NCBI GenBank assembly: GCA_030650025.1
Contig: JAUSEN010000029.1
Span: forward strand, 287-64,286
Direction of reading: 5' to 3'
Length of the DNA stretch: 64,000 nt
Source: Candidatus Magasanikiibacteriota bacterium
GTDB lineage: Bacteria; Patescibacteriota; Patescibacteriia; Magasanikbacterales; GWA2-37-8
Both the position numbers and the translations under genes were made by a program. Below are positions 6,963 to 24,443 of the stretch, piece after piece (the first letter of the stretch is position 1; each line of letters opens with the position of its first letter). The notes under the pieces are model-generated. The model did not search any database, was not told where the DNA came from, and saw only the letters and a program-made list of their open reading frames with translations.

Positions 6963-7001
6963 AATTTTTTAGGCATTTTTTATAAATTTATTTACACACT
7001 A

Positions 7002-7170: not shown

Positions 7171-7183
7171 TAGAGCAAGTTTT

Positions 7184-7741: not shown

Positions 7742-7771
7742 TTTTTGTTAATTACTAATCTTTCACACACT

Positions 7772-7852
7772 ATGTCCAAAGTATTAGGCATTGACCTCGG
7801 CCCGCCTGCGCTCGCGAGAGCTACGGCGAGGCGAAGCACAACTAATTCTTAA
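7772..7852 (+). pseudogene. Second relic of the dnaK 5' end (10 codons conserved)
   Basis: atgtccaaagtattaggcattgacctcggc encodes [10 protein letters not shown], then diverges ([16 protein letters not shown]). It shares an identical 18-nt stretch, acacactatgtccaaagt, with relic 1 that includes 7 nt upstream of the ATG. Confidence 0.65.
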
Positions 7853-7881
7853 TTTATTTACTTTTAATTTATTACAAAATT

Positions 7882-9795: not shown

Positions 9796-9806
9796 ACCAC
9801 ACTATT

Positions 9807-10283
9807 ATGTCAGAAATATTTACTCCAGAACAAGAGACAAACGAGTTCCTGCAACGATTCCGGGCGTACATGATAAAAGTAATCGAGGAAACAAACAAAA
9901 CCGGGCCTGGCCATTTTGCGGAGATCAGCGACAGCAAGGAAGAGTATGTCAAGAAGTTTGGCCACAGCGAGATGACCGCAATTTTTTATCTGGCCGGAAT
10001 TTTGCGCGCCTTATCGGCCGACTCAATTGCGGCAACCGGCGTGCAGCATGTTGAGGTTTTAGTTCGGTCCGCCAGCCGCGGCGCGGATGGTTGTGAAAAA
10101 TTATTTGCGTCTTGGTATCGTACAGTGCTTACCCCTCTTACCCAGCTGGGCGATGGAAAAGGCGGATATCTGCCCTGGGAAAATTCGGAGAATCCAGAAG
10201 ATAGCATTTTATTTTTGGTGAACGAAGCCAAGCAGAGGTTGTTGCTAGATGAATTGCCAGAGACAAAAATTATTGAAAAATAA
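9807..10283 (+). CDS. Hypothetical protein inserted between dnaK and dnaJ
   Basis: 158-aa ORF in tight tandem (11-nt gap after dnaK, 15 nt before dnaJ). I recognise no motif. Confidence 0.4.
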   Translation: MSEIFTPEQETNEFLQRFRAYMIKVIEETNKTGPGHFAEISDSKEEYVKKFGHSEMTAIFYLAGILRALSADSIAATGVQHVEVLVRSASRGADGCEKLFASWYRTVLTPLTQLGDGKGGYLPWENSENPEDSILFLVNEAKQRLLLDELPETKIIEK

Positions 10284-10298
10284 CAGACTGAATTTAAA

Positions 10299-11411
10299 AT
10301 GTCCAAAGATTATTATAAATTACTCGGCATAGACAAAAATGCCACCACTGACGAAATAAAAAAAGCCTTTAAAAGGCTGGCTCTTCAGTTTCATCCCGAC
10401 CGCCCGGGCGGAGACGAAAAAAAATTCAAAGAAATTAACGAGGCTTACCAAGTGTTAAGTAATTCGGATAAGCGCGCTAAATACGACCAATTTGGCTCGG
10501 ATTTTGAACAGCAAGGCGGCTTTGGCGGCGGGGCGGGCTGGGAAGATTTTATGCGCGCCGCGCGGGGCGGCCAGGGCGGTGGAAATTCCCACTTTGATTT
10601 TGGCGATTTGGACTTGGGCGATTTATTTGGCGGCGCCTTCGGCGGCGGGGCCGCCTCTGGTCGTCGCGGGCGACCTTCGGCGAGCCGAGGGCGGGATATC
10701 CAAGTTGATGTGGAAGTAGACTTTAAAGAAGCGGCGTTTGGCGTGGAGCGAGAGCTTAGTTTGCGTAAACAAAGCGCCTGCGATGTTTGCCGTGGACACG
10801 GGGGCGAACCAGGTAGCAAACTAGATACTTGTCCCACTTGTAAAGGCCAGGGCCAAGTAATGCAAGTCCAGCGGACATTTTTAGGCGCTATGCAGACTGT
10901 GGTCGCCTGTACGAATTGCGAAGGGCGCGGTCAGAAGCCAGAAAAAAAATGCAAACATTGTGGGGGGTCGGGAGTGCACGCTAAAAATACCAGCGTTAAA
11001 ATAAAAATCCCTGGCGGAATTGATAATGGTCAGGCTATTAAACTAACTGGCCACGGTGAAGCCGCGCCGCATAATGGAGGCGTCGGCGATTTATACGTGC
11101 GTGTCCATATTAGGCCCCATAAAAATTTTACGCGCGAGGGTTTTGATGTTCATAGCCATATTGAAATTAGTTTTGCCGAAGCGGTTTTGGGAGCGCATGT
11201 TAAAATCGAAACGATCGACGGCCCGGCCGAGTTAAAAATTCCCGAAGGCACCGAAGCCGGCCAAGTTATTCGGCTCAAAAATAAAGGCGTGCCGGAACTG
11301 GGGAGGCCTTCCGCGCGCGGCGACCACTATGTCCATGTTAAATTGCGCGTTCCCAAAAAATTGAGCAAAGCGGCGCGACAGGCGCTGGAAAATATTAAAA
11401 ACGAGCTTTAA
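10299..11411 (+). CDS. dnaJ: Molecular chaperone DnaJ (Hsp40, type I)
   Basis: J domain (DYYKLLGIDKNATTDEIKKAFKRLALQFHPDR), a G/F-rich linker, four CxxCxGxG zinc-finger repeats and a C-terminal domain. Confidence 0.95.
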   Translation: MSKDYYKLLGIDKNATTDEIKKAFKRLALQFHPDRPGGDEKKFKEINEAYQVLSNSDKRAKYDQFGSDFEQQGGFGGGAGWEDFMRAARGGQGGGNSHFDFGDLDLGDLFGGAFGGGAASGRRGRPSASRGRDIQVDVEVDFKEAAFGVERELSLRKQSACDVCRGHGGEPGSKLDTCPTCKGQGQVMQVQRTFLGAMQTVVACTNCEGRGQKPEKKCKHCGGSGVHAKNTSVKIKIPGGIDNGQAIKLTGHGEAAPHNGGVGDLYVRVHIRPHKNFTREGFDVHSHIEISFAEAVLGAHVKIETIDGPAELKIPEGTEAGQVIRLKNKGVPELGRPSARGDHYVHVKLRVPKKLSKAARQALENIKNEL

Positions 11412-11415: not shown

Positions 11416-12633
11416 ATGCGGAAGCAAATTTTTGGAGTTTTATTCTTAACAGTTTTTGGTCTAACATTTTTCTTATCCAGTACCGCCGCCGCGGTCGCGA
11501 GCGCCAATCAAATAAATTTTTCCAAAATAATTTCCGGCTTGCCGGCTCGCCTTAAATTGTATGACTCGGCCGTCATAGCCGGTTCAACGCGCGTTGTGAC
11601 GTATAAAGAAGCGCCGCTGTCTCCGGCCGTGGCCTATCGCGATAATATCAAAACTAGCCAATTGCTCGCCATTTGGAACCGTCTGCTAAAAAGTGGCTTA
11701 ACCAGGCGTTCTAAATTCACGGTTGAACAAAATGGCAGAGAGGTAATTTACCGCGTTAAATTAAGGCTCACTTCGGCGCAAGCCAATGAATTTATCAAAC
11801 TCTACTGGCCGTTTATAGATATCAACGGTTTGACGGCCGCCCAACTTAAAACTTTTAAGCCTAGAGTACGCGGCATTACTTATGCCGAGGTTCAGGTATT
11901 TATTTCTGGTGTAACTAGTTTGCCAACTGGCCTCAAACTGACATGGGTAGTACAGATGGACAAGAAAAAACCAGCGACAGTTCAAAAGGTATCATCATTT
12001 ATTAGTTATTTTAAATTTCCCCAGACTACGCCTCCACCGGCCGCCGCGCCTGCCGCCACCTTTTCAGCCACCACTTCCATTATTAATGTTTTAGCTCCTC
12101 TCAAACAAATCGTCTCGGAAAGCAAAGTAGCCTTTTCTACTACTTCTACTTTTAACAATACTTCTGTGCCCGAGTCTGACGCGCCTCCTCTTTCATCTGT
12201 CATTGTTCAGGCGCCCTCTGGCGCCATGAATTTTAGGGGTGAGGGTGGAGTTACCGCTTCACAAGTCGCGCACCTTGATTCCATTGTTAATCGCGATCAA
12301 CAACGCCTTAACGACCTTGAGGCCATTAAACAAGCCCTGCAATTTTTTTATAAAGATCAAAATTATTATCCTCAAGCCGTTAAAATCAAACTAGGTTCCG
12401 CCGGTTATGCCTGTCTTAATAGTGACGGCTTCAACCAGGCGGATTGCCCTTATCCATACCTTCTGGCCGTTCCCAAAGATCCTTTAGATAACTCGTTTAG
12501 CTATGAGTACAGCGTGGTTTATAATCAAAATAATCTGGCCACAGCGTACCTGGTTCTCGCTAAGCTAGAAGGCCAAACTGATTCTCTTTCCGGATCAATT
12601 AAACTTACTCCGAGTGGCGTAGTAAAAAACTAA
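11416..12633 (+). CDS. Secreted protein with a Sec-type signal peptide. The C-terminal region resembles a pseudopilin (GspG-like) globular domain.
   Basis: N-terminal FGVLFLTVFGLTFFLSSTAAAVASA. The C-terminus ...DCPYPYLLAVPKDPLDNSFSYEYSVVYNQNNLATAYLVLAKLEG recalls the PKDP...Y-x-Y signature of pseudopilins. There is no prepilin cleavage motif. Confidence 0.35.
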   Translation: MRKQIFGVLFLTVFGLTFFLSSTAAAVASANQINFSKIISGLPARLKLYDSAVIAGSTRVVTYKEAPLSPAVAYRDNIKTSQLLAIWNRLLKSGLTRRSKFTVEQNGREVIYRVKLRLTSAQANEFIKLYWPFIDINGLTAAQLKTFKPRVRGITYAEVQVFISGVTSLPTGLKLTWVVQMDKKKPATVQKVSSFISYFKFPQTTPPPAAAPAATFSATTSIINVLAPLKQIVSESKVAFSTTSTFNNTSVPESDAPPLSSVIVQAPSGAMNFRGEGGVTASQVAHLDSIVNRDQQRLNDLEAIKQALQFFYKDQNYYPQAVKIKLGSAGYACLNSDGFNQADCPYPYLLAVPKDPLDNSFSYEYSVVYNQNNLATAYLVLAKLEGQTDSLSGSIKLTPSGVVKN

Positions 12634-12646
12634 TTTTGCGGAGCGT

Positions 12647-13171
12647 ATGGCCGGGAAATCCAAACAAGAGTTTGAGGATTTTTACAATCAACATTTTGAT
12701 AAAATTTATCGTTATGTTTATTTTCGGGTTGGCGCGAACCGCGCCTTAGCGGAAGATCTGGTCTCCGAAGTTTTTTTAAAGGCGCTTGAACATTTTGATT
12801 CTTACGACCCGGCTAGAGGCCAAAGCGCCTGGATTTTTACCATCGCTTCTAACCACCTAAAAAATTATTGGCGAGACCACAAACCCACGGAACCCTTGCC
12901 CGGTGAAGCTCTAAACGCAGGCGAAGAGGGGCACGCTCCCGATAAAGACTGGCTAAAGCCCGCCCTAGCCGCTTTAGAACAGCAGCTCACTCGGGCCGAG
13001 GTTACTAGTCTTGTCGCTCAGCTCGAGAGCCTGTCGGAACGCGAAATTGTAACTTTTCACTATATTTTAGGGTATAATTATAAAGAAATTGCCGATCAGA
13101 AGGGCATGAGCGAGTCCGCTGTCAAAGTGGCCGCGCACCGCGCTCTCAAGAAATTGCGGCAATTTATTTAA
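12647..13171 (+). CDS. RNA polymerase sigma factor, sigma-70/ECF-type (copy 1)
   Basis: Region 2 (FDKIYRYVYFRVGANRALAEDLVSEVFLKALEHFDSY) and region 4 HTH (EREIVTFHYILGYNYKEIADQKGMSESAVKVAAHRALKKLRQ). Confidence 0.8.
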   Translation: MAGKSKQEFEDFYNQHFDKIYRYVYFRVGANRALAEDLVSEVFLKALEHFDSYDPARGQSAWIFTIASNHLKNYWRDHKPTEPLPGEALNAGEEGHAPDKDWLKPALAALEQQLTRAEVTSLVAQLESLSEREIVTFHYILGYNYKEIADQKGMSESAVKVAAHRALKKLRQFI

Positions 13172-13175
13172 AAAT

Positions 13176-13802
13176 ATGCGCTTGATTCATTATAAATTTT
13201 GGAAAATTAGCCGCCATTTAAACGCCTCTAAATCGTTTAAATCTTCGCTTTGGAAAAAGCTCGAGGCGAATTTACCACAGGCTAACTTAATAGCCTATGC
13301 TTGGTTTGAACCGCCTTTTGTTCGCCGCTTAAGTGGCGTAGTAGCCGGGCTTGTTTTAGTTGCTACCAGCCTGACCAACGCTTACGCTTATGTGAGCCCG
13401 GAGGTGGCCGAAGGCGCCCTGCTCTACCCGCTTAAACAAGCTTGGGAAAAAGCCGAAGAAGCAACCAAAATAACTCCGGCCGCGGAAGCCCATTTTTATT
13501 TAAAGAAGCTGGCCCGCCGCGAAGCGGAAAGCGCTGTTTTAGAGCGTCGTCAGAAAAAAGCCACCAAAACCAAGGTTCAACTGGAGTTAATCGAACAACG
13601 TCTGGAAGTTGTTACCGAAAAGCTTGAGAAAGATTCTGACAATGCCAATCAAAAATTAGGCCATGATCTTCGTCAGCGCTTAATCAAGCGTCAAAAATTT
13701 TTGGAAACCAAGTTAAATAAGTTAAACAAAGCGCGATCTAAAAATTTCGTATCAGCCGTGCCCGCTACTCATAAAACTCTAGAAAAGAAACTTCCCGATT
13801 AG
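13176..13802 (+). CDS. Putative anti-sigma factor or membrane partner of ECF sigma (copy 1)
   Basis: It sits 4 nt downstream of the sigma gene. A single TM segment (GVVAGLVLVATSL) is followed by a helical K/E-rich region, the same architecture as the 17030-18292 ORF. Confidence 0.45.
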   Translation: MRLIHYKFWKISRHLNASKSFKSSLWKKLEANLPQANLIAYAWFEPPFVRRLSGVVAGLVLVATSLTNAYAYVSPEVAEGALLYPLKQAWEKAEEATKITPAAEAHFYLKKLARREAESAVLERRQKKATKTKVQLELIEQRLEVVTEKLEKDSDNANQKLGHDLRQRLIKRQKFLETKLNKLNKARSKNFVSAVPATHKTLEKKLPD

Positions 13803-15544
13803 CGCACTATCGCGCCCTTGGCCGCGCCGCGGTCAGTCGCTGGCAAAACATTGCTAAGCGAAGCTCGGCTTAAAGAGAACTCTCGGCCCACGGCGTCATC
13901 CGTGCCGGTAAAAAACATGTCGCGCGCTAAAATCAAGCTACTGCCCGCCTGCTCGGGCGTTGGTATTACTTCCACTTCAAAATAAAGACCAGTGACGCTA
14001 TTGGCCAGAAGCTCATAGTGGCTCCAGCTCACGCGCTGGCTGGTAGTGTCAAATTTCAGAGGCGGTCCTAAAGTGATGCTTTGTTTACCGGTAAACCTTA
14101 CCCCTGAAGGTAAGGTGGCGGCAAACGCGGCGTCGCGAACTTTATTGGTGCTATTATAAATTTGTACCCAGATCCAGTATTTCGTGGCGCTTCCCACTTG
14201 GGGTGGTAAAGGGCCGCGACCCAGCTGGTCGCCCTCGTCAGTATAATACCGGCTCGCTACGGAGAGCTGAACATCGGTCGCTAGTTTTAAGCGCGCGGTG
14301 GTGCCGCCTTGGGCGAAGCGCTGGCCTGAAACTGCCGGCACGCCCGCCTCGATAACCGGAGAAATAACTAGCTCGGTACTGTCTGTTTGGCCGGGCAAAA
14401 AGTGATCAGCCAAATATATATTGATGTTAAAAATGTCGCTAGCTCCGGGTTCGGCAGTGGCCAAGCTTGTCTTGGCTTTACCATCGATAACGAGTTTGCC
14501 GTTCTCAATTTTTAAGTTGTTATTTTTGGCAGTAGCAAAGAGGTCGATTACTCCCGGCGTTGTTTCTAGAATTATTTTCGCGTTAGTTAAGTTAAACGGG
14601 CTGTTATTGCGCCAACTTAATTCTATTGGTAAAACCTGTTTTGGTTCGCCGTAGCTCGGCGGGTTAAGCCAGCGCGTAGCTACGCCTAAGTCTGGGTAAA
14701 TAATCTTAACCCGGGCAGTGGCGGGATTTTGTTTGATTGGATAGTTGTTTATTTCTATTACCGGGCTTACGGTTAAAATCAATTCATCGGGTTTAAGAGG
14801 CGTCATGAGCGAGCCGGTAATTTGTTTAGTTTCACCCGGCGCTAATGCCAAATTGTTCCAATCGGATAGTCGTTCGTTAAGGCCGCGCCAAGATTTTACC
14901 AGATTAATTCGCTCGATTTTATGTTCCGAATTATTTGTCAAGTTAAAAGTATAATTCAAAGCATTAGCCGCGAGCGAGCTGGAGGCTGTTAAAATTTGGC
15001 CGCTTAAAATACTTTCGGGAAGTTTCAGTAAATATGACCCCAGCTTTTGTTCGCGGCGGTCAGTTTTTTCTGGCACGTAAGATAGCGAAGCGATTATATT
15101 TTCTTCAGCGTTGAACTCTGTCCACAGCCAACCGTATAAATCCACGCGGCCGCCGGCCCCGGGTAAAACGTCCGGCAGAGCCACGGTATTTTGTTTAGAA
15201 AAGTACGATTCCGAAGATTGGGTGCGGTCAATCAAAAATCCTTTGGGGAGTCTTAAAGCGAGCGCGGCCTCTTGTAGTATGAACTTACTATTATTAACGT
15301 AGTCCACTGTGAGGTGGACAGCCTCGCCGCTTTTAATGCGGCCGTTTCCGAGAGATAGGGAGAGCGCAATTTGATTTTGTAAACCCGGCTTCCAAAAAAA
15401 TAAAAATATCGCCACCCCCAAAAGCGACACGGCGGCGGCTAAAAGCGCCATGTCAAATACAAACAATTGTTTGGCATGGCGATAAATGCCATGGTATCTT
15501 CGGTGATAATGACGGTTAAGGTGGGTGTTTATTTTTTTAAGCAT
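13799..15544 (-). CDS. Large membrane-anchored extracellular protein (H/R-rich cytoplasmic N-terminus, one TM, roughly 520-aa beta-rich ectodomain)
   Basis: MLKKINTHLNRHYHRRYHGIYRHAKQ...MALLAAAVSLLGVAIFLFFW is followed by an N/T/S-rich ectodomain. It is convergent with 13176-13802 and overlaps it by 4 nt. Confidence 0.45.
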   Translation of the reverse strand: MLKKINTHLNRHYHRRYHGIYRHAKQLFVFDMALLAAAVSLLGVAIFLFFWKPGLQNQIALSLSLGNGRIKSGEAVHLTVDYVNNSKFILQEAALALRLPKGFLIDRTQSSESYFSKQNTVALPDVLPGAGGRVDLYGWLWTEFNAEENIIASLSYVPEKTDRREQKLGSYLLKLPESILSGQILTASSSLAANALNYTFNLTNNSEHKIERINLVKSWRGLNERLSDWNNLALAPGETKQITGSLMTPLKPDELILTVSPVIEINNYPIKQNPATARVKIIYPDLGVATRWLNPPSYGEPKQVLPIELSWRNNSPFNLTNAKIILETTPGVIDLFATAKNNNLKIENGKLVIDGKAKTSLATAEPGASDIFNINIYLADHFLPGQTDSTELVISPVIEAGVPAVSGQRFAQGGTTARLKLATDVQLSVASRYYTDEGDQLGRGPLPPQVGSATKYWIWVQIYNSTNKVRDAAFAATLPSGVRFTGKQSITLGPPLKFDTTSQRVSWSHYELLANSVTGLYFEVEVIPTPEQAGSSLILARDMFFTGTDDAVGREFSLSRASLSNVLPATDRGAAKGAIVR

Positions 15545-15693
15545 ATTTTATCTTAACTTTACTTTTTCTGTCATTCTGAATACCTATATTATACTCGCTC
15601 TAAAAGCAAAATGTCAAAAAACCCCAAGCCGTAGCCAAGGGGTTTAAAACAATTAAGTTTAGTTATGTTAATTATCATTATTTCTTGATATTT

Positions 15694-16029
15694 TTATTCT
15701 GCAGGCACGGCTTTAGGTTTAGATAAAGATTTGGGGTTAGGGGAGTAGAGGGGGTTTTTAATCTTCCAGCGATCCACATACTGGCCAATTCCTCTTTTTG
15801 CCAGTTTGTTTCGTATCGTAATATTACGTTGCGACCATTTAATTAAGCTTTCAAAGTTAAGTTTATAGCGCCCTGATACCACTACATAAGTAACTTCTTG
15901 GGCTTTAATCGCGCGCCTGATAGTTTGGTTATTAACACCAAACAATCTGGCCGCTTCTGACACAGAAATTCTGATCATTTCCTTAGAATCTACGTTATTT
16001 TGTTGATTTTCGACCATATTTAACCGCAT
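15694..16029 (-). CDS. Helix-turn-helix DNA-binding protein (excisionase/MerR-like HTH family)
   Basis: ISVSEAARLFGVNNQTIRRAIKAQEV is a typical excisionase-family HTH. It is a small basic protein transcribed divergently from the operator array. Confidence 0.55.
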   Translation of the reverse strand: MRLNMVENQQNNVDSKEMIRISVSEAARLFGVNNQTIRRAIKAQEVTYVVVSGRYKLNFESLIKWSQRNITIRNKLAKRGIGQYVDRWKIKNPLYSPNPKSLSKPKAVPAE

Positions 16030-16048
16030 TTAACTTTAATTATATATT

Positions 16049-16071
16049 TTTGTATACTGTAGTCTATACAA
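16049..16071. repeat. Operator/iteron repeat 1: TTTGTATAC, 5 nt spacer, TCTATACAAA (8-bp inverted half-sites)
   Basis: One of three near-identical 23-bp elements with TTTGTATA / TATACAAA half-sites. Confidence 0.65.
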
Positions 16072-16143
16072 TTATAGCAAAGTTAGATTAAAAAGTCAAG
16101 CCTTTCTAATAAAAGAGCTTATTAAAAATTTTATATTACTAAG

Positions 16144-16167
16144 TTTGTATACAACAATCTATACAAA
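16144..16167. repeat. Operator/iteron repeat 2 (same motif)
   Basis: TTTGTATACaacaaTCTATACAAA, 95 bp after repeat 1. Confidence 0.65.
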
Positions 16168-16236
16168 TTTAGTAATTTTTAGTGATTATTTACCTAAATT
16201 TGGCTAAGAATAAGCTTAAATGAACAAAGTATTTAA

Positions 16237-16260
16237 TTTGTATACACTAATCTATACAAA
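16237..16260. repeat. Operator/iteron repeat 3 (same motif)
   Basis: TTTGTATACactaaTCTATACAAA, 93 bp after repeat 2. Confidence 0.65.
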
Positions 16261-16337
16261 ACTACGACTTACGTCGGGGTTCGGAATGGCAGATTAATTA
16301 TGCGTGAGGTATATAGCATGTCACTTTATCCACACTA

Positions 16338-16366
16338 TTGAAAATTTAGCTAATTTATGGTAGAAT
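16338..16366 (+). promoter_or_regulatory. Promoter of the second ECF sigma operon: TTGAAA, 17 bp spacer, TG-n-TAGAAT
   Basis: TTGAAA at 16338-16343, a 17-nt spacer, then TAGAAT at 16361-16366 with an extended TG at 16358-16359. It lies about 110 nt upstream of the ATG at 16476. Confidence 0.5.
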
Positions 16367-16475
16367 GAAGAGCGTTAATGCACAGCTGTTTTACAGCTTT
16401 TTTTGGGTTATAATGTAAATATAAGGCGGCCCGGCTTATTAGTGTAACAAATAGGCCAAACCAGCGTCTTCTACT

Positions 16476-17021
16476 ATGAACAGCTCTTTAGAACAAAAAC
16501 GCCTCTTGTATCGCCTGCAAATTGAACACGACCCCGAAGCCTACGCGACGCTTTATGATTTGTTTGTAAAGCAAATCTATCGCTTCGTGTACTTTAAGGT
16601 CGCGAGCCGCGAAGAAGCCGAGGATATCACTTCCGAAGTCTTTCTCAAAGCCTGGCACTATTTGCAAGAAAACAAAGAGGTCAAAAGCTTTAGCGGCTTA
16701 TTATACAAAATAGCGCGCAATGCCATCATTGACTTGTATCGCAGTAAAAGCGCTCGCCCCGAAGCTTTAATAATAGACGCGGAATTTGACCTCGCGAGCG
16801 AGCCAGACTTGGCTCTCGGAGTAGAAAGCAAAATCGAACACGCCAGAATTTTAGGAGCTTTAAAAAAGTTAAAGCAAGAGTATCAGGAAGTTCTGACCCT
16901 GCGATATGTCGATGATCTCGGCATTAACGAGATTGCCGAAATTATTAGTAAGAACGAGATCAGCGTTCGGGTCACTATCCATCGGGCGTTGAAGCGCTTA
17001 AAAGAAATTCTCCAGCCTTAA
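16476..17021 (+). CDS. RNA polymerase sigma factor, sigma-70/ECF-type (copy 2)
   Basis: Region 2 (FVKQIYRFVYFKVASREEAEDITSEVFLKAWHYL) and region 4 (EVLTLRYVDDLGINEIAEIISKNEISVRVTIHRALKRLKE). It is paralogous to 12647-13171. Confidence 0.8.
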   Translation: MNSSLEQKRLLYRLQIEHDPEAYATLYDLFVKQIYRFVYFKVASREEAEDITSEVFLKAWHYLQENKEVKSFSGLLYKIARNAIIDLYRSKSARPEALIIDAEFDLASEPDLALGVESKIEHARILGALKKLKQEYQEVLTLRYVDDLGINEIAEIISKNEISVRVTIHRALKRLKEILQP

Positions 17022-17029
17022 TTAATCAC

Positions 17030-18292
17030 ATGAAGTCAATTCTAATAAAACAACTGCAAGGGCTCCGGCAGGGGCAAAGCGAACCTGCTCCCGAGTGGCT
17101 AAAAAATAGCCGCCAGTTGCTATTGACTCAAGTTAAAAATACCATTGACAAGGACACGGAACCAGCTAACCGCTTGGCTAATTTTTGGTCCTGGTTAGCT
17201 ATTTTTCTCCCTCAAGGTTTAGTATTTAACGTGGTCAGGCCTTTGGCAGTTTTGGTAGTGGTGGCTTTGGTCGGCACCAGCGGCTGGATCGCGAGCGTGG
17301 ACGCGGCTTATGACGCTCTCCCCGGAGACGGCGTGGCTTATTATCTCAAACGCGGCCTGGAAAAAACCCAAGTCGCGGTTATATCTTTAGTTGGCGACAG
17401 TGATGACGAGGCTAAACTCCATTTAAAATTTGCTTCTTCTCGCGCCAATGAAGTTAAAAAAATGTTAGCCGGGCATGATAAAAAGAAAGCCCGGCATGTG
17501 GCGCAAACAGTTCAGGATTTAAAACAAGAGATCACCACCGTTAATACCAAAATTGAAAAAAGTTCCAGCGCCGAAACTATTAAAGACGTGGCCGTAGATG
17601 CCAAAGAAATTAAAAATCTTCTTCAAGATGCGAAAAATCTACTGTCTGCTTCCACCACACCAGATTTAGCTCAACAGGTTAAAGATGTTAAAGATCTAGC
17701 CAAAGACACTTCTGTTAAAGCCATGGAAACACTGGTTAATAAAGTAGTTTCCGGAGACCAAACAGTCACGACCGAAGAAGTTAAGCAGGTGCTCGGCAAA
17801 GCTCTGCAGTCTGCCGCTACCGAAGCTATGGAATCTCAAGTGGCGGCTGAATCTTTAAAAGTGGCCGTGGATAGTGTTAAAAATGGTATCATTGGCGCCA
17901 CGACCACTCCAGATAACACATCATCCACCATCCAAGAAGTTAAAGATTTTGCGAAAATGGTCGCCGTCGCTTCAACCCAAACCAATATTGTGGTGGAGCA
18001 GACCATCCAAGTCAGCTCCGATGTTACTTCTCAAGTCACCGAAGCCCAGAAAGCCATTTTAAATGGTGACTTGGCTACGGCTGTCGGCACGATTAAAGAC
18101 GTGGCTCAAATTACTAAAACCGTGGAGCAACTTACGGACACGGTTGTGCAACAAGCCCAGTCGGTTTTGCCAGTGGCTTCGGTTGATGTTAATAATGTCA
18201 TAGTTGATTCTGCTTTTGCTGTTAGCAGTTCCACTGCTTTTCCCTCCGCTACCGCTACCAGTGTTCCCCAAATCAGCTCTACCGCTAATTAA
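17030..18292 (+). CDS. Putative anti-sigma factor or membrane partner (copy 2) with a long degenerate-repeat extracytoplasmic region
   Basis: It sits 8 nt after the sigma gene. One TM segment (LAVLVVVALVGTSGWIA) is followed by a region like copy 1 (VAYYLKRGLEKTQVA...KLHLKFASSRANEVKKMLA vs AHFYLKKLARREAE...) and about 250 aa of V/K/D/T-rich degenerate repeats. Confidence 0.45.
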   Translation: MKSILIKQLQGLRQGQSEPAPEWLKNSRQLLLTQVKNTIDKDTEPANRLANFWSWLAIFLPQGLVFNVVRPLAVLVVVALVGTSGWIASVDAAYDALPGDGVAYYLKRGLEKTQVAVISLVGDSDDEAKLHLKFASSRANEVKKMLAGHDKKKARHVAQTVQDLKQEITTVNTKIEKSSSAETIKDVAVDAKEIKNLLQDAKNLLSASTTPDLAQQVKDVKDLAKDTSVKAMETLVNKVVSGDQTVTTEEVKQVLGKALQSAATEAMESQVAAESLKVAVDSVKNGIIGATTTPDNTSSTIQEVKDFAKMVAVASTQTNIVVEQTIQVSSDVTSQVTEAQKAILNGDLATAVGTIKDVAQITKTVEQLTDTVVQQAQSVLPVASVDVNNVIVDSAFAVSSSTAFPSATATSVPQISSTAN

Positions 18293-18312
18293 AATTAATT
18301 TTTGGTTCTTTG

Positions 18313-18372
18313 CCCTATTCGCCTCTCGACTACACTCGAGGTAAATAGGGGAGAGAGACAATAGGTTTTATT
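18313..18372 (+). terminator. Nested stem-loop (CCCTATT...[CTCGA-ctacac-TCGAG]...AATAGGG) followed by a downstream T-run. Possible terminator or leader element.
   Basis: The 7-bp outer stem at 18313-18319 and 18344-18350 encloses a 5-bp inner hairpin. The T-run ttttatt at 18366-18372 lies 15 nt downstream, which is not ideal for an intrinsic terminator. Confidence 0.3.
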
Positions 18373-18535
18373 AAATCGGGTTTCGTTTCAAGGTCGAGAG
18401 TCCATGAGGACTTACGAAATTCATGTGACGGTACTTAAGCAAAATTGCAAAATTTTGTTTGGGCCGTAACCTCTCGCCGCGCTTGTCTAGTTCACACTCT
18501 ATAGGCGCTCGCGAGATTAAATTACTAAATTAATT

Positions 18536-21500
18536 ATGTCGACTGTTATAAAATCAATCAAAAAGGTTTTCACCTTCAGTGTAGTGTCGACCACCATTTT
18601 GTGGAGCAGCATGGTTTCCGTGCTTGTTCCTTCAATGGTCAGCGCGGCCGCCTGCCCAGCCGGATTCGGCCCAGGCTCCATGCTTAAGGTCGTTGGGCGT
18701 CCCCCTCTCTACATAATGAATAACAACAATCAATTGCTCTCATACTTTAGCGGTAGAGAGTACAAGACTTGGACTGCTGACGACAAATACAGCGGCCATT
18801 TTTACGTTTCGCAAGAATGCTTTGACGAACAGAAACTGCCGACGATGTTGCCGACCTTGGTTGGCTATCGCCCTGGTACTATGGTCGTAAAGCGGATCGC
18901 GTCTGACCAGCTCTATGCGGTTTTGCCAGGCAACACCTTGGCCAAAATCACCGTGGAGGCTGCCAAATCGCTCTATGGCGCCAATTTTACCGCCGTAGTT
19001 GTTGATGACGTCGCTTTCCCTCACTATGTTAACCGCGCCGCCACCGACATCACCGAAGCCAAGCCGCACGAAGGCATGTTGGTTTCGAACGGCGGTAAGA
19101 ATTGGTATGTGGATGCTGGCATGAAACTGCGTGAAGTAAATGGCACCGGTTTCTCCGCCAACAAATTCCAGACTCGGTATGTTCACCCGGTGAGCGACGC
19201 GATGGTCGCGGGCTACACCAGTGGTGAAGTTATTTCCGCCGAAGTGGCGGCCTTGGTAGATCGCACGCAAAGCGGTGGCGTTGTCGTCACCCCTCCACCC
19301 GTGAATCCTCCTGGCCCCACCCCAACCTCCACCCCGGCTCCAATCGGCGGTAACTTAACCGTTTCCTTGGCTGCCGATAACCCGGCCGCCACCTACTTGG
19401 CTTCAGGCACGGCTTTAAACCCGGTCTTGAAGCTTTCTTTGTCCGCTTCGAGCGATACCACTGTCACCAGCCTGAAAATTCGCAAATCCGGTTTCTACGC
19501 CAACACCAATATTACTGGTGCTGATGTTACAGACTCCAAGGGTATGCGTCATGGCAACGTGGTTTCCACTTTGAGCGCGGACAGCGATCTGAACATTGGT
19601 TTTGCCTCTGAACCTATTGTGGTAAAAGCAGGCATGCCAGAAACCGTCTTAGTTCGCGTTAACTTAATCGCGGGCGCCTTCACCGGCACCTTCGCGATGT
19701 CCGTTCTCGCGGCTGGTTCGGTTGGTTCCAACGGCACTGTTGGCGGTACCTTCCCAATCACGGGTAACACCTTCAACGTGCAAGATGGTTCCAGTTCAGT
19801 GGCCGCTGTTCAAATCAACCCACAATTGGTTGGTTCTAACATGACCCTCAATGCTGACGGCACCAATCTGCAAGACATTGCCAAATTTAGCATTCAGGAA
19901 ACCTCCAGCCGTGAAGAGGTTAACTTAATGAAGTTATCTCTTTACAACAATGGCACCGCCGCGGATTCAGACTACAAAGACGTTCAGCTCGTTGAACAGT
20001 CTTCCAACAAAGTTCTGGCCACGGCTCAACCCAAAAACAAGGTTGTAATGTTCGACCTTGGCACTGGGTACATGATTGGCAAAGGCCAAACCAAGTATTT
20101 CTTGGTGCGCGCTATATTAATGAACGGCGCGGCTCGTACCATTCAGTTCGTGGTTTATAACAACTACGATCTTGAGGTCAAGGGTACTACCACTGGTTCT
20201 TTGGTCCTTCCGACCACAGACAGCTCCACTGGTAACGTCAGTGCTACGGCGTTCCCAGCTGGTAATGCTACCAACTACAACAAAGTAACGATTGGTTCGG
20301 GCGCGGTTTCTTTCAACAAGAATTCCGACTCCCCATCCAACGCCGTTATTGCTGGCGCCAACAATGTTGTCTTAGCTAAGTTCTTTATCAAACCCTCGGG
20401 CGAAGATATGGAACTACGCAAGATGATGCTTGGTATTACCAACTCCGGTCCTAAGGCCTTGGCTGGCACCGCGTATGTTAAAGTAGATGGCGCTACTGTC
20501 TACAGTGTGGCCGCTTCGAGCGTCGTCACTACTATGGCTGGCGCGTCCATTTCGCTTTCTTCATACCCCGTGCTTAAAGCCGGTGTAAACAGCTATGTGA
20601 CAGTAGAAGCTAATATTGATTCTTCCGCTGGCACCACTAATGTTTACAAGGTATACATGCGCCCGTCCGAAGTTAAGCGTTTGATTACCAACGATATCAC
20701 GATTGACGCCACCACGGTATTGCCCGCCTCACTTTCGGCTGGCAACAATATCGCGGTTCAAGGCACGACTTTAGCGGTTACCACCATGTCCGCTCCAGTC
20801 GCCGCCAACGTGGTCGCTGGCACTAACAGCCACGAGTTTGCTCGTATTGAGCTTAACGCTGGCCCCTCTGGCGAAGACATCCGTGTTAACACGATCGTTG
20901 TCAGCGACGTCATTTCTGGCGGCGCCGCCTTAACGAACGTGGCTAACCTGACGCTCTATGCCAATGGTCAGCCGCTTCTTACCAACAACAGCACCGCGGT
21001 TAACGCCGCTTCCAACACCTTCACCTTCTCCACGCCTATCGTGGTAACCCGCGCTAACCCAGTAGTGATTAGCGTTAAAGGTGATGTCGTGGCTGGTACC
21101 GCTGGTTCGCACACCTACCGGGTGAGCGGCACCGCTGATGTGACTGCTTATGGCCAAGGATTCGGCAACACCGCCACCATTACCATTGCTGGTTCTGGCC
21201 AGGCGATGACCGTAGTGTCCGCCGGCACTCTCAACTTGTCGCTGGTTTCTGGCCCCACCGCCTCGCCGTCCAATGATCGTATGGTCACTGTCGGCACGGG
21301 CGATGTTTCAGTCTTTGGCTTCAAGATGAGCGCCCAGAACGAAGCGCAGAAACTTACCACTTTGGTACTGACCGCTTCTTCTACCGCTGGCAATACCTTA
21401 GGCAGCAACGACATCGTGAATGTGCGCCTCTATTTGAACAACTCGGCCACGCCGTTTGCTTCGGCCAACGCTGGCTCCTGCGCTAGCAGTGTCTGTACCT

Positions 21501-22264
21501 TTACCTGGACTAACACAGACAATGTCTTGCCAGAAACTGTTCAACCTGGCTTCCCCGCGACTGTCTATGTCAAAGCCAACATTGGTCAACCCGGCTCGGC
21601 CGCGGTTACCAACGCGTTTAAGTTCTACTTTGCGACTTCATCCACTACCGATGTTGTCTTCAAAGGAGCCTTTAGCGGCGCTACTTCCACTGTGGCTGGT
21701 CTTCCGATCGCCTCTGGCTTAACGATCGTCTCACCTTGGAACGTAACAATCAGTGGCGAAGCTCCGGCCGCCGGCACTTCGCTCACTCAAACAGTTGGCG
21801 CTGGCACCCAGATCGGCCGCTTCAAAATCATGAACAACGGTACGGGGCAGGTTACTGTCACGGATCTGCGGTTTACTGATAACGGCAGCCATACTGGCAC
21901 TACCACCACCTACAAGCTGTACTACTCGGATGAAGGGTCTACCAACTATATTGGTAATACCGCGACCACTACGGTCACGGACTTCTCCTCGAGCGTACTT
22001 GACTTCAGCGGTGGCATGACCAACTTTACCATCAACGGCAATTCTTATCGCTACATCACTGTCGCGATCAGCACTGCCGGCAATATTGCGGCTGGTAATT
22101 CTTGGGCCTTGGCGCTCCCTGCCTTCAGTGATGCCAAATATAGCATCACCGAATCTAACCTTGGCTACTCCAACAATGGCGACGCTGACCTTGAGGACAC
22201 CGTTACCGGTGCCTTCATGGAAGGTAAGCCATCGCTTGGCACCTTGGTTAAGCAGAGCACCTAA
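18536..22264 (+). CDS. Giant secreted surface protein (S-layer-like or adhesin-like) with an N-terminal unique domain and tandem beta-rich repeat domains
   Basis: Signal peptide (FTFSVVSTTILWSSMVSVLVPSMVSAAA). The 1242-aa sequence is T/S/G/A/V/N-rich with a P/T linker (PPPVNPPGPTPTSTPAP) and repeated roughly 100-aa modules. The gene is visibly GC-richer than its surroundings, with strong GC3 codon bias. Confidence 0.6.
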   Translation: MSTVIKSIKKVFTFSVVSTTILWSSMVSVLVPSMVSAAACPAGFGPGSMLKVVGRPPLYIMNNNNQLLSYFSGREYKTWTADDKYSGHFYVSQECFDEQKLPTMLPTLVGYRPGTMVVKRIASDQLYAVLPGNTLAKITVEAAKSLYGANFTAVVVDDVAFPHYVNRAATDITEAKPHEGMLVSNGGKNWYVDAGMKLREVNGTGFSANKFQTRYVHPVSDAMVAGYTSGEVISAEVAALVDRTQSGGVVVTPPPVNPPGPTPTSTPAPIGGNLTVSLAADNPAATYLASGTALNPVLKLSLSASSDTTVTSLKIRKSGFYANTNITGADVTDSKGMRHGNVVSTLSADSDLNIGFASEPIVVKAGMPETVLVRVNLIAGAFTGTFAMSVLAAGSVGSNGTVGGTFPITGNTFNVQDGSSSVAAVQINPQLVGSNMTLNADGTNLQDIAKFSIQETSSREEVNLMKLSLYNNGTAADSDYKDVQLVEQSSNKVLATAQPKNKVVMFDLGTGYMIGKGQTKYFLVRAILMNGAARTIQFVVYNNYDLEVKGTTTGSLVLPTTDSSTGNVSATAFPAGNATNYNKVTIGSGAVSFNKNSDSPSNAVIAGANNVVLAKFFIKPSGEDMELRKMMLGITNSGPKALAGTAYVKVDGATVYSVAASSVVTTMAGASISLSSYPVLKAGVNSYVTVEANIDSSAGTTNVYKVYMRPSEVKRLITNDITIDATTVLPASLSAGNNIAVQGTTLAVTTMSAPVAANVVAGTNSHEFARIELNAGPSGEDIRVNTIVVSDVISGGAALTNVANLTLYANGQPLLTNNSTAVNAASNTFTFSTPIVVTRANPVVISVKGDVVAGTAGSHTYRVSGTADVTAYGQGFGNTATITIAGSGQAMTVVSAGTLNLSLVSGPTASPSNDRMVTVGTGDVSVFGFKMSAQNEAQKLTTLVLTASSTAGNTLGSNDIVNVRLYLNNSATPFASANAGSCASSVCTFTWTNTDNVLPETVQPGFPATVYVKANIGQPGSAAVTNAFKFYFATSSTTDVVFKGAFSGATSTVAGLPIASGLTIVSPWNVTISGEAPAAGTSLTQTVGAGTQIGRFKIMNNGTGQVTVTDLRFTDNGSHTGTTTTYKLYYSDEGSTNYIGNTATTTVTDFSSSVLDFSGGMTNFTINGNSYRYITVAISTAGNIAAGNSWALALPAFSDAKYSITESNLGYSNNGDADLEDTVTGAFMEGKPSLGTLVKQST

Positions 22265-22290
22265 TTAGTTTCAGGATAGCTTACAATCCT

Positions 22291-22340
22291 AACCAAACAA
22301 CCCCCCTCCGCCCTTGGCGGGTGGGGGGTTGTTGGTTTTT
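22291..22340 (+). terminator. Rho-independent terminator with a roughly 22-bp near-perfect stem and a T-run
   Basis: aaccaaacaacccccctccgcc-cttg-ggcgggtggggggttgttggtt followed by ttttt. It sits 27 nt after the surface-protein stop. Confidence 0.8.
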
Positions 22341-22343
22341 AGT

Positions 22344-22372
22344 TTGACACTTTAGAACAAAATCCGTATAAT
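22344..22372 (+). promoter_or_regulatory. Consensus sigma-70 promoter: TTGACA, 17 bp spacer, TATAAT
   Basis: TTGACA at 22344-22349, a 17-nt spacer (ctttagaacaaaatccg), then TATAAT at 22367-22372. It lies 47 nt upstream of the ATG at 22419. Confidence 0.7.
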
Positions 22373-22418
22373 AAGCACCAGTCGCGCTTTATTAACGCTT
22401 AATTTTTTTACAAATATT

Positions 22419-24443
22419 ATGCAAAAAAACCTGGAGTATTTTATTAAAGGTTTAGTATATTTAAGTTTTTTTGTACCTTTATTGGTTTTACCATCGTCGT
22501 TTATTTTTCCATTTATTGTCCCGAAAATTTTGTTGTTTCGCTCGCTCTCCATCTTAATGTTTGGGGCGTATCTGCTCCTCTGTGTCAGTAACCCGCGCCA
22601 ATATTTACCGCGCCTTAGCCCGGTTTTGGTAGCTCTGGGGTTGTTTATATTAAGTTTTAGCATTAGCACCTTCGCGGGCGTCGATGCCTACCACAGCTTT
22701 TGGGACAACCACGAGCGCATGCTCGGCCTCTTCACTATTTTGCACTATTTTATTTATTTTTTGGTAATCACAGCCATCTTTCGCTCTTGGAGCGAATGGC
22801 GGCAGTTATTTTGGGTTTTTTTAATAGCCGGCTCGGCAGTTATGTTCGTTGGAATGTTGCAAGTTGGTAATGCCGATCTGCTTTTGAATCAAGGCAGTGA
22901 CCGCGTCGCCTCGACGCTCGGCAACCCTATTTATGTTGGTGGTTACGGTCTTTTTTTGGCATTCGTCGCCGCTCTCCTCATAGCCAAAGAACGCCAACTG
23001 GCGTGGCGATTGGCCGCCGCCTTCTTCGGTATTTTCGCGCTCCTCGGGATGTTTTATAGTGGTACGCGCGGTTCTATGCTCGGGTTCATCGCCGGGCTTT
23101 TCTCCAGCCTCATTATTTACGGGATTTTTAGTAAAACTAATTTTAAAGCTCGTTTAGCATCGGGCCTTGTTTTAGCCAGCCTTTTGGTATTAGTTAGTTT
23201 CGCTTACAATTGGCGGCATACCACGTTCGTACAAAATATTCCGGCTGTGGGGCGCGCGGTCAACACTTCGCTTTCTAGTGTTAAAAGCAGCCCGCGCTGG
23301 GTAGCTTGGGCGATTGCTTGGGAGAGCTTTGTCGAGCGCCCAGTTTTTGGCTGGGGTCCCAATAACTTTTTCTACGCTTTCAACAAACATTATAATCCGC
23401 GCTCTTTAGAGTTTGGTTACGGCGAAACTTGGTTCGACAATGCCCACAATATCATTATGAATACTCTCTCGGTGCAGGGCGGGCTTGGCCTAGTTACTTA
23501 TTTAGGCATTTTCGCTATGGCGGTAGGCGTTCTCTTGCGGCAGTATCGCCGCGGCGCCGTGGAATTGAATATTGTTTTGTTTGGCAGTGCTTTTTTAGTG
23601 GCACACCTCGTGCAAAATATTACTGTTTTTGAAAACCCCACGTCGTATCTTTACTTCATGGTTTGGTTGGCCTTTGTTAATCGCTTTACAACCGCGTCTG
23701 CGGATCAATCCGCTCTTCGCGCTCCATTTGTCAGCCGCCCTATCTCGAAGAGCGCCCTAGGCGCTACCGCTTTAGTCTTGATTTTGTGGATTTATGTCTT
23801 TAACGTCCAGCCCGCCCGCGCTAACTCTCTGGCTTTAAAAACACTGCGCGCTATCAGCCAAGACCCGGTTGGTTCTAGCAATCAAATTAAAGCGGCGTTG
23901 GCGTTTAATTCGCCCCACATCGATGATGTCAGAAACGACATCGGTCGTATTATCCTAAATGCCGTGCCTGATGTCTCTCAAAAATTTGGTTCTGATAAAG
24001 CCAAAGAACTAATGGACTTGTTAGAGCCAGCTTTACTCGAGAATACTAGGTTGCATCCCGGAGATATAAGGGTGTATATGCTTTTGGGGCAATTATACCG
24101 TTTTCGCGCCACGCTCGATCGCGACCCGCAAGAAGTAATGAGAGCCATTACAGTTTATGAACAAGCTCTGGTGCACTCTCCCCGCCGCCAGCAGTTGGTA
24201 TATTCTTTGGCCGAATTATATGGCATGATTGGTAACAATAAAAAAGCTGTCGAGCTCATAGAGCAGTCGATTGTTGATAATCCCAAAATTGCCGAAGGGT
24301 ATATTCGCCTGGCCTATTTATACAGCACCGCTAAACAGCCGGCCGAAGCCGCCAAAATAATTGCCACAGCCAAAGAGCGGGGCGTAGTTTTTAATTCGAG
24401 CGAAGCGGCCGCGGCCACGCAAATTTTAGGCGCTACCAAATAA
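22419..24443 (+). CDS. O-antigen ligase/polymerase-like (Wzy_C-type) polytopic membrane protein fused to a C-terminal TPR-like soluble domain
   Basis: About 12 TM helices with the characteristic large periplasmic loop. The C-terminal roughly 200 aa contain helical repeats (LGQLYRF..., AELYGMIGNNKKAVELIEQS..., AYLYSTAKQPAEAAKI). Confidence 0.55.
   Translation: MQKNLEYFIKGLVYLSFFVPLLVLPSSFIFPFIVPKILLFRSLSILMFGAYLLLCVSNPRQYLPRLSPVLVALGLFILSFSISTFAGVDAYHSFWDNHERMLGLFTILHYFIYFLVITAIFRSWSEWRQLFWVFLIAGSAVMFVGMLQVGNADLLLNQGSDRVASTLGNPIYVGGYGLFLAFVAALLIAKERQLAWRLAAAFFGIFALLGMFYSGTRGSMLGFIAGLFSSLIIYGIFSKTNFKARLASGLVLASLLVLVSFAYNWRHTTFVQNIPAVGRAVNTSLSSVKSSPRWVAWAIAWESFVERPVFGWGPNNFFYAFNKHYNPRSLEFGYGETWFDNAHNIIMNTLSVQGGLGLVTYLGIFAMAVGVLLRQYRRGAVELNIVLFGSAFLVAHLVQNITVFENPTSYLYFMVWLAFVNRFTTASADQSALRAPFVSRPISKSALGATALVLILWIYVFNVQPARANSLALKTLRAISQDPVGSSNQIKAALAFNSPHIDDVRNDIGRIILNAVPDVSQKFGSDKAKELMDLLEPALLENTRLHPGDIRVYMLLGQLYRFRATLDRDPQEVMRAITVYEQALVHSPRRQQLVYSLAELYGMIGNNKKAVELIEQSIVDNPKIAEGYIRLAYLYSTAKQPAEAAKIIATAKERGVVFNSSEAAAATQILGATK

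Follow-up and report, generated by a model that had tools for sequence, protein, structure and literature searches.

A 64,000-nucleotide stretch of DNA from Candidatus Magasanikiibacteriota bacterium (contig JAUSEN010000029.1 of assembly GCA_030650025.1, positions 287 to 64,286 of the forward strand), here called the window, contains a gene for a 1242-amino-acid surface protein. The gene is preceded by genes for a sigma factor and a membrane protein and by a structured leader, and is followed by a terminator and a glycan cluster. It most likely encodes the major surface-layer (S-layer)-type coat protein of a monoderm, ultra-small Candidatus Magasanikbacteria cell. Hypothetical protein Q7K39_04985, from a Candidatus Magasanikbacteria metagenome-assembled genome, has the identical sequence (100%). 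The gene and the parts of its product, with the basis for each assignment in parentheses, are as follows.

18536-22264, plus strand: surface-protein gene (open reading frame encoding 1242 amino acids)
18536-18652, plus strand: signal peptide, residues 1-39, ending AAA before C (sequence features)
18653-19273, plus strand: N-terminal domain of about 205 amino acids with three beta-beta-beta-alpha repeats, a putative cell-wall anchor (AlphaFold2, predicted local distance difference test score, pLDDT, >90)
19274-19348, plus strand: Pro/Thr-rich flexible linker (sequence; low pLDDT)
19349-22255, plus strand: six homologous immunoglobulin (Ig)-like beta-sandwich modules (AlphaFold2, Foldseek, HHalign)
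19349-19789, plus strand: module D1
19799-20191, plus strand: module D2
20273-20707, plus strand: module D3
20741-21250, plus strand: module D4
21269-21673, plus strand: module D5
21683-22255, plus strand: module D6

The protein has a signal peptide, a unique N-terminal domain, a Pro/Thr linker, beta-rich tandem modules and abundant potential glycosylation sites, all of which had been proposed in an initial annotation of this DNA. The N-terminus, MSTVIKSIKKVFTFSVVSTTILWSSMVSVLVPSMVSAAA followed across the cleavage site by CP, is laid out like a Sec signal peptide (n/h/AxA), judged from the sequence. The layout is conserved in the family, and A37, C40 and P41 are nearly invariant. AlphaFold2 models were built on family alignments for two regions. 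The model of residues 38-290 (pLDDT 88 overall and >90 inside the N-terminal domain) has a disordered linker after the three repeats; the linker, TPPPVNPPGPTPTSTPAP, spans about residues 247-270 and has a pLDDT of about 50. The model of residues 270-1242 is all-beta, with a mean pLDDT of 91.7. We cut the family alignment at the AlphaFold2 domain boundaries and compared the pieces profile against profile with HHalign. The six modules are mutually homologous but diverged (probability 89-99% in 14 of 15 pairs), and the N-terminal domain is unrelated to them. BLASTP comparison of the protein with itself found no internal repeats; the modules emerge only by profile comparison. There are 18 N-x-S/T sequons, and Ser and Thr together make up 21.6% of residues.

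Searches of Pfam, NCBIfam and PDB sequences with the 1242-residue protein, as a single sequence and as a profile, gave no matches, to a mobile adhesin family or otherwise, and the three S-layer homology (SLH) motifs (PF00395) looked for via Pfam were absent. By structure, Foldseek matched the module region to generic Ig-domain arrays (hydin, PrgB, integrins, alpha-2-macroglobulin and antigen I/II). Single repeats of the N-terminal domain resemble uncharacterized actinophage proteins (root-mean-square deviation 1.7-2.4 Å).

The N-terminal domain is probably a wall anchor. The 82 homologs are all from Patescibacteria, and nearly all are 1190-1290 amino acids long, at identities reaching down to 25%. 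A sister subfamily with an N-terminal PG_binding_1 domain has more than 443 proteins in Jorgensen-, Brenner- and Paceibacterota; its full-length members are 1102-1198 amino acids and are 43% identical to the 1242-residue protein over 86% of its length. Both groups are confined to Patescibacteria; protein length is steady at about 1110-1290 amino acids, with most members between 1100 and 1300, even at 25% identity. The 1242-residue protein has no known anchor domain, and its N-terminal domain sits where relatives bear PG_binding_1 or SLH; one homolog (P0059) has SLH and one has PG_binding_3 together with PG_binding_1. When 1.84 billion representatives were searched at E <= 1e-3, the N-terminal domain was found in 663 clusters, 67 of them at E <= 1e-30. 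In these clusters it is placed either straight after the signal peptide or at the extreme C-terminus, in host proteins of 125-3159 amino acids. A second protein with this domain is encoded on the same contig as one ortholog (loci L030 and L054). A wall-anchoring domain behaves in this way: it is terminal, joins many different partner proteins and is exchanged for PG_binding_1 or SLH.

The unusual base composition of the gene is due to amino-acid content and a preference for C-ending codons, and not to horizontal transfer. The initial annotation had called the gene GC-richer than its neighbors, with strong GC3 (G+C content at third codon positions), and this was borne out. GC is 0.528 versus a window mean of 0.451 (standard deviation 0.032), GC3 is 0.599 versus 0.460 (z 2.65), and GC2, the corresponding value for second positions, is 0.488 versus 0.373 (z 3.1); the gene is first among all 61 window open reading frames by each measure. 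GC2 is the highest in the window and the protein is rich in T, A, V, S and G (together 52% of residues); therefore, part of the GC shift, about half, is amino-acid composition. GC2 was also raised in eight of eight orthologs examined, and GC3 in only some of them.

We measured the preference for C-ending codons as NNC/(NNC+NNT), that is, C over T in two-fold pyrimidine-ending codons. The fraction is 0.61 in the surface-protein gene versus 0.30 in the other window genes pooled (p = 1e-26), which ranks first of 61 and is above that of DnaK (0.43), the opposite of what is seen in a low-expression gene. Four-fold codons ending in A are avoided. The same bias is present in the orthologs at seven of seven other loci (p from 6e-4 to 2.5e-26), where they rank first to third among the 11-15 genes called per locus. 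It is kept in the L003 and L007 orthologs even though their GC3 is below that of neighboring genes. A bias that is common to orthologs and survives changes in genomic GC points to translational selection on a highly expressed gene. By the proxy of this conserved codon preference, the surface-protein gene appears to be among the most highly translated in the genome.

These findings bear directly on horizontal acquisition, which the initial annotation had offered as another source of the composition shift. An island carrying a foreign surface gene would account for the GC-richest gene in the window. It would not account for the GC2 that is up in all orthologs or for the NNC bias that persists in L003 and L007, no mobile-element genes flank the surface-protein gene in the window, and relatives from many genomes have the same flanking genes around it. 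Synteny is vertical over 69 species-level loci, in which neighbors were counted by tblastn. Based on the conserved codon bias and the conserved synteny we reject horizontal transfer, which we consider very improbable.

A different function for the same protein deserves more weight. It could be a host-attachment adhesin or fiber of an episymbiotic bacterium of the candidate phyla radiation (CPR), switched on by an extracytoplasmic function (ECF) sigma factor and its anti-sigma factor upon host contact or envelope signals. The Ig array does resemble PrgB and antigen I/II, ECF sigma/anti-sigma control is typical of conditional responses, and Kuroda et al. proposed that related peptidoglycan (PG)-binding proteins aid host attachment (PMC10936435). 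However, adhesins usually vary in repeat number, whereas module number and total length are fixed here over deep divergence, with one six-module homolog found per locus fetched. The gene also has the strongest translational codon bias in the window, kept in orthologs, and the anchor swaps with classic wall-binding domains. We judge an adhesin to be unlikely. An S-layer or envelope role is supported by the anchor swap, the six Ig-like modules, the steady length, the downstream Wzy_C/glycan cluster and the S-layers published for CPR bacteria, the cells of which have S-layers and lack an outer membrane (10.1101/2020.05.14.094862). The surface-protein reading of the initial annotation is thus supported overall, with lattice formation and glycosylation as predictions; of the outcomes that the annotation had named as refuting it, none was observed.

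The surface-protein gene is likely co-transcribed with the genes for an ECF sigma factor and a DUF5667 protein. The features upstream of the leader are the following.

15694-16029, minus strand: HTH_17/excisionase-family DNA-binding gene, divergent from the sigma operon (Pfam HTH_17; NCBIfam 'excise')
16042-16260, no strand assigned: three 31-nt operator-like repeats, imperfect palindromes with the core TTTGTATAC-N6-TCTATACAAA, spaced by 95 and 93 bp (repeat search)
16338-16366, plus strand: sigma-70-like promoter TTGAAA-17-TAGAAT with TG, upstream of the sigma operon (motif search)
16443-16468, plus strand: ECF-type promoter TGTAAC-N16-CGTC, before the sigma gene
16476-17021, plus strand: ECF sigma factor with regions 2 and 4 only (Pfam Sigma70_r2 and r4_2; NCBIfam sigma70-ECF)
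17030-18292, plus strand: DUF5667 single-pass membrane protein, putative anti-sigma factor (Pfam DUF5667)

The order HTH_17, ECF sigma, DUF5667 and surface-protein gene recurs in the loci of relatives. An ECF sigma gene is present in 55 of the 69 loci, about 2 kb upstream and on the same strand, a count that includes loci of distant homologs with other N-termini. The HTH_17 gene is upstream in 44 loci and the DUF5667 gene is present in 43. The DUF5667 protein has one hydrophobic helix (about residues 65-90) and a helical exterior domain. A sigma factor with regions 2 and 4 only, an adjoining protein with a single transmembrane helix and an AAC...CGT-type promoter are the marks of an ECF sigma/anti-sigma module, and anti-sigma activity of the DUF5667 protein is predicted on this ground.

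The sigma gene appears to be autoregulated. A single TGTAAC(A)-N15/16-CGTC motif is present in each of the 37 loci, out of 43, whose upstream sequence is long enough; it always lies right before the sigma gene and never in the leader. The sigma start codon is exactly 7 nt past CGTC in 40 of 40 loci, and this fixed distance indicates that the sigma mRNA made from the autoregulated ECF promoter would be leaderless. At the place equivalent to that of the sigma-70-like promoter, loci L003, L004, L006 and L008 have TTGAC..TATAAT-like sites. The 31-nt repeats sit between the HTH_17 and ECF sigma genes, where other loci have similar TTGTATA..TATACA palindromes, and they are probably operators of the HTH_17 protein.

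We found no recognizable promoter belonging to the surface-protein gene itself. In the 320 nt upstream of the leader core, a sigma-70-like promoter had no consistent position among 43 loci, and 32 of the 43 had none. The DUF5667 stop codon is within about 25 nt of the first leader helix (P0, below) in about 25 of 39 loci; the rest have extra intervening sequence or hairpins. Given the lack of a recognizable promoter, co-transcription with the sigma and anti-sigma genes is the simplest reading. The initial annotation had described the gene as flanked by strong expression signals; this is correct for the terminator and the promoter downstream and does not hold upstream, where the gene has no recognizable promoter of its own.

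The leader is a conserved, six-helix structured RNA with compensatory changes across species. It spans 18293-18535 (243 nt) and has these elements.

18306-18358, plus strand: helix P0, with a pyrimidine-rich 5' arm and a 3' arm formed by the conserved GA box GGGGAGAGAGA (18348-18358)
18359-18377, plus strand: A-rich linker, unpaired
18378-18422, plus strand: 5' domain of P1 (18378-86 with 18414-22) and P2 (hairpin 18398-18413)
18387-97, plus strand: asymmetric internal loop with invariant A-R-GUCGA-R (consensus nAARGUCGAR)
18423-18428, plus strand: AUUGUA box, AUGUGA in the window
18425-18470, plus strand: P3, a variable hairpin (independent minimum-free-energy folds of 38 leaders)
18472-18516, plus strand: 3' domain, P4 as a long stem around hairpin P5 (covariance model R2; covariation)
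18517-18535, plus strand: A/U-rich unstructured tract, 17-20 nt, no Shine-Dalgarno sequence, followed by the AUG at 18536

Compared with shuffled sequences, the leader folds with a z of -6.2 on the plus strand and -3.1 on the minus strand. The initial annotation had pictured two stable nested stem-loops; the fold is indeed stable, and it comprises six helices, P0 to P5, rather than two. P0 starts 14 nt past the DUF5667 stop codon in the window, and across loci this hairpin pairs a 5' arm of pyrimidines with GGAGAGAGA on the 3' side. A k-mer search of the end of the DUF5667 gene for a conserved motif yielded nothing beyond the A/T-rich stop region and the P0 pyrimidine arm. The loop sequence GUCGA is invariant in 48 of 49 aligned matches (GUUGA in the other) and is mostly found 115-155 nt 5' of the start codon (41 of 44 loci). 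At the P4/P5 junction, relatives have YGAY before P5 and GCGC after it.

The leader motif is specific to this position. Covariance model R1 matches the window leader with 49.5 bits (E 2.7e-10), and the motif occurs as a single copy per locus and nowhere else in 976 kb. Model R2, of the 3' domain, covers 38 loci. Matches to the models are always on the plus strand just upstream of the gene, including at five loci outside the seed (L039-41, L053 and L072). The models did not find the motif at the PG_binding_1 and SLH variants (L005 and L007) or at more distant homologs. Rfam 15 gave no match at gathering score in the whole window, and at E up to 10 the leader gave only chance microRNA and sok matches.

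Covariation supports the modeled helices; a leader with no conserved structure had been named in the initial annotation as a refuting outcome, and the opposite was observed. Under the single constraint that GUCGA be unpaired, 40 of 48 sequences independently form P1, loop and P2, with at least a dozen different P1 arm sequences. In a plain MAFFT alignment, the paired fraction is 94% for P2, where UA:21/CG:15 and CG:19/UA:18 are examples of the pairs, and 82% for P4, with double changes at every pair; covariation is 0.46-0.48 for the real structure versus 0.09-0.23 for slid controls. In model-fitted alignments the paired fractions are 95.5% for P2, 76% for the P1 core, 88% for P4 and 76-81% for P5. 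The overall fractions of paired cells are 76-84% versus 64-65% in shuffles, and covariation is 0.46-0.62 versus 0.09-0.26 in slid controls. Double changes occur in 27 of 27 modeled pairs, and none of 500 shuffles reached the observed covariation. RNAalifold on MAFFT alignments recovered P2 only, or nothing, because variable hairpins and shifting bulges misalign; we used manual structures and covariance models instead.

Three other readings of parts of the leader were rejected. The string TAAATC-N15-17-GTCGAG could be mistaken for an ECF-type promoter, and at least 40 loci show that it is the P1 5' arm and internal loop, with compensatory changes. The GA box and a TTAAT as -35 and -10 elements would be spaced by 7-14 nt, and the start site would lie within P1. 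Leader peptides were limited to chance open reading frames of 20-24 codons, none of them conserved.

Neither the surface-protein gene (18517-18535) nor the downstream Wzy_C gene (22380-22418) has a Shine-Dalgarno sequence; A/U-rich tracts precede both starts. The P4 stem of relatives ends in a run of purines (AAGGA or GGAGA), which, at about 17 nt from the AUG, is too distant for a normal Shine-Dalgarno sequence.

We considered whether the leader might be a true sensor, either a riboswitch or a protein autoregulatory site, with the gene expressed from its own unrecognized promoter and the RNA setting translation or termination according to an envelope signal. The multi-helix architecture is what such a sensor would have, as are the invariant unpaired nucleotides, about 20 or more, of the internal loops and junctions. 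In 32 of 37 sequences, in addition, the distal YGAY varies solely at the two positions that would face the G's of the GUCG loop, which fits tertiary pairing. We propose this pairing as a hypothesis, because both motifs are otherwise invariant and there is no covariation in them that would prove the contact. An expression platform is not apparent: there is nothing terminator-like or sequestering a Shine-Dalgarno sequence, there is no U tract at P3, and the purines that end P4 are too far from the AUG. The leader is not known to have a ligand or binding protein, and the distance from the upstream stop codon to P0 leaves no space for a promoter. A sensor of this kind is possible but doubtful. We favor co-transcription with the sigma and anti-sigma genes, which would make the leader part of a longer transcript.

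The surface-protein gene ends at a strong terminator and is followed by the promoter of a glycan cluster.

22291-22343, plus strand: intrinsic terminator, a 21-bp G+C-rich stem followed by U5 (folding; features of a Rho-independent terminator)
22344-22372, plus strand: TTGACA-17-TATAAT promoter of the downstream glycan genes (12 of 12 consensus positions)
22419-24443, plus strand: Wzy_C membrane protein with C-terminal TPR, of the O-antigen ligase/O-oligosaccharyltransferase family (Pfam Wzy_C and TPR; PDB TPR matches)

The 84-nt segment 22262-22345, with the terminator and a small upstream hairpin, folds at -40.5 kcal/mol (z -5.6). The initial annotation was right about a strong terminator and slightly long in giving its stem about 22 bp, which we measured as 21; the perfect TTGACA-17-TATAAT promoter is as it had been described. 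The polytopic membrane protein matches PF04932 with 64.5 bits (cut-off 31.7) and belongs to the Wzy_C family, with its enzyme activity predicted. The Wzy_C gene is adjacent to the surface-protein homolog in L001, L003, L004 and L008. It starts a same-strand glycan cluster that is more than 20 kb long, reaches past 42 kb, and includes genes for GT4 glycosyltransferases, DegT aminotransferases, methyltransferases, GDP-mannose dehydratase/epimerases and a cytidylyltransferase.

Within the cluster, at 36719-39201, genes for a HAD phosphatase, a DAHP-synthase-family protein (NCBIfam PRK12755, 345 bits versus a cut-off of 343) and a KdsB-like cytidylyltransferase lie side by side. The trio resembles KdsA/KdsC/KdsB but with a 7-carbon ulosonate synthase, which suggests a cytidine monophosphate-activated 3-deoxy-heptulosonate sugar. 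The Falkowbacteria locus L008 has two Wzy_C/TPR genes around a TPR-only gene (11978-17217) directly after the homolog. In the Jorgensenbacteria locus L005, an AbiEii/DUF6922 toxin-antitoxin-like pair (11937-12820) lies between the PG_binding_1 homolog and the Wzy_C gene.

Other genes lie upstream of the sigma operon. A gene for a 581-amino-acid membrane protein (13799-15544, minus strand) is present in 35 of the 69 loci. The protein has a basic N-terminus, one transmembrane helix, a beta-rich exterior and faint DUF11/CLIPPER similarity; its gene has a perfect TTGACA-18-TATAAT promoter (15617-15588, minus strand) and the third-highest C-ending bias in the window. The envelope may thus have another abundant component in this protein. 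The conserved block is immediately preceded by another ECF sigma gene (12647-13171) and a gene for a 208-amino-acid partner (13176-13802). Farther upstream is a heat-shock block (2164-11411) encoding HrcA, a NUDIX-GrpE fusion, DnaK and DnaJ; the GrpE of this genome carries the NUDIX domain at its N-terminus.

We propose the following model. The protein would be exported by Sec and cleaved between AAA and C, after which the N-terminal domain would hold it to the wall, with the Pro/Thr linker as a spacer and the six Ig-like modules as an exposed sheet. Its gene would be the third cistron of an operon, after those for the ECF sigma factor and the DUF5667 anti-sigma factor, driven by a housekeeping-type promoter and by the autoregulated ECF promoter that gives the leaderless sigma mRNA. 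The leader may uncouple coat output from that of the regulators, by processing, by stabilization of the downstream mRNA through its paired 5' structure, or both, and it would offer the unstructured A/U-rich tract for initiation without a Shine-Dalgarno sequence. Its invariant loops (GUCGA, the AUUGUA box and YGAY...GCGC) could bind a protein or ligand. The strong terminator would close the unit, and the next promoter would drive the Wzy_C/TPR enzyme and sugar cluster, which probably glycosylates the coat protein or the wall polymer to which the coat protein would bind. We believe that this combination of S-layer-type coat gene, sigma operon, leader and glycan unit is the best explanation of the locus as a whole, and hold it with moderate confidence.

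A bolder version goes further. The leader would be a cis-regulatory RNA of a new class, with the invariant GUCGA, YGAY and GCGC nucleotides as the contacts for a protein or small molecule. With the ECF sigma factor and the DUF5667 anti-sigma factor it would close a feedback loop by which S-layer protein supply follows the state of the envelope, and the N-terminal domain would be a new, widespread wall-anchor module. We offer this version only tentatively.

Several observations weigh against our interpretation. Structurally, the array of modules is most similar to generic Ig arrays, adhesins (PrgB, antigen I/II and integrins) among them, and the sole structural resemblance of the N-terminal domain in PDB, to the EccB1 repeats, is weak (E 3e-3, TM score 0.2). 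Genes under an ECF sigma factor are usually expressed conditionally rather than constitutively. The case for co-transcription is that no recognizable promoter was found, and the gene may have one of an unrecognized type. The P4/P5 domain of the window leader is divergent and fits model R2 poorly (29.9 bits, E 0.08). A Wzy_C gene is within 6 kb in 23 of the 69 loci, and the enzyme could serve wall polysaccharide rather than protein. The protein is taken to be abundant by a codon proxy, and lattice formation, wall binding and glycosylation are predictions from sequence. The published proteins compared below may belong to the same family, judged by size, phylum and domain make-up.

The locus matters because CPR bacteria (Patescibacteria) are a large share of bacterial diversity, and their envelopes are known almost only from cryo-electron microscopy images. 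It provides a specific, testable surface-layer protein candidate for Magasanikbacteria and their relatives. The unannotated terminal domain of about 205 amino acids, present in hundreds of CPR surface-protein clusters, is probably how these proteins are fixed to the CPR wall, and the conserved sigma/anti-sigma/coat unit suggests how synthesis of the coat is controlled. The leader is a well-supported structured RNA motif that is new to Rfam. In vitro tests of both the leader RNA and the anchor domain are possible and need no culture of the organism.

The S-layer-type protein family itself was probably already anticipated. A structure-prediction survey (the SymProFold preprint) and its supplement contain Patescibacteria S-layer-protein candidates of 1131-1274 amino acids (10.1101/2024.05.28.596244), with A0A1F5NRV7, A0A0G1WWP5 and GMX59286.1 among the accessions of the supplement, and in three Paceibacteria the top five secreted genes by expression include PG-binding/Ig-like proteins (PMC10936435). 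These proteins share phylum, size range, signal peptide and Ig-like arrays with the 1242-residue protein, and some have an N-terminal PG-binding domain; the Magasanikbacteria form has a different, unannotated N-terminal domain. The literature searched described no sigma/anti-sigma linkage or leader RNA for such proteins, linked no Magasanikbacteria to S-layers and did not mention DUF5667.

The S-layer proteins of Bacillales (SbsB, SbsC, Sap and SgsE) have no sequence similarity to the 1242-residue protein, which lacks SLH. The modules here, unlike theirs, are six copies of one homologous unit, and the regulation is different. In Geobacillus stearothermophilus, the slg glycan cluster, including the Wzy_C-family transferase WsaB, directly follows the S-layer gene sgsE. 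The window has the same arrangement, with a glycan cluster and Wzy_C enzyme right after the surface-protein gene. The repeated beta-beta-beta-alpha units of the N-terminal domain are like those of EccB of type VII secretion, but beyond that weak match there is no sequence similarity and no shared context.

The regulatory genes resemble those of Streptomyces, in which the ECF sigma factor BldN and its anti-sigma factor RsbN control the chaplin and rodlin genes of the surface sheath. In both cases an ECF sigma factor and an adjacent single-pass membrane anti-sigma factor are dedicated to abundant surface-coat proteins, in the window by prediction. The best NCBIfam match of the window sigma factor is the BldN-family model (119 bits, below the cut-off of 206). 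The systems differ in that the coat gene here would be in the same transcription unit and the anti-sigma candidate is a DUF5667 protein.

The leader also has parallels. Long structured 5' untranslated regions stabilize S-layer mRNAs, for example that of Lactobacillus acidophilus slpA, and in the papBA operon of Escherichia coli intercistronic processing separates a regulator from an abundant structural gene. Here, too, a long, stable leader precedes an envelope gene that appears to be highly expressed, with regulator genes upstream in the same orientation. The leader differs from a simple 5' hairpin in being a defined motif of six helices, with phylogenetic conservation and invariant loops. 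In comparison with these systems, the new elements are the sigma/anti-sigma/coat-gene unit with its predicted leaderless, autoregulated sigma mRNA, the six-helix leader RNA and the unannotated, putative terminal anchor domain.

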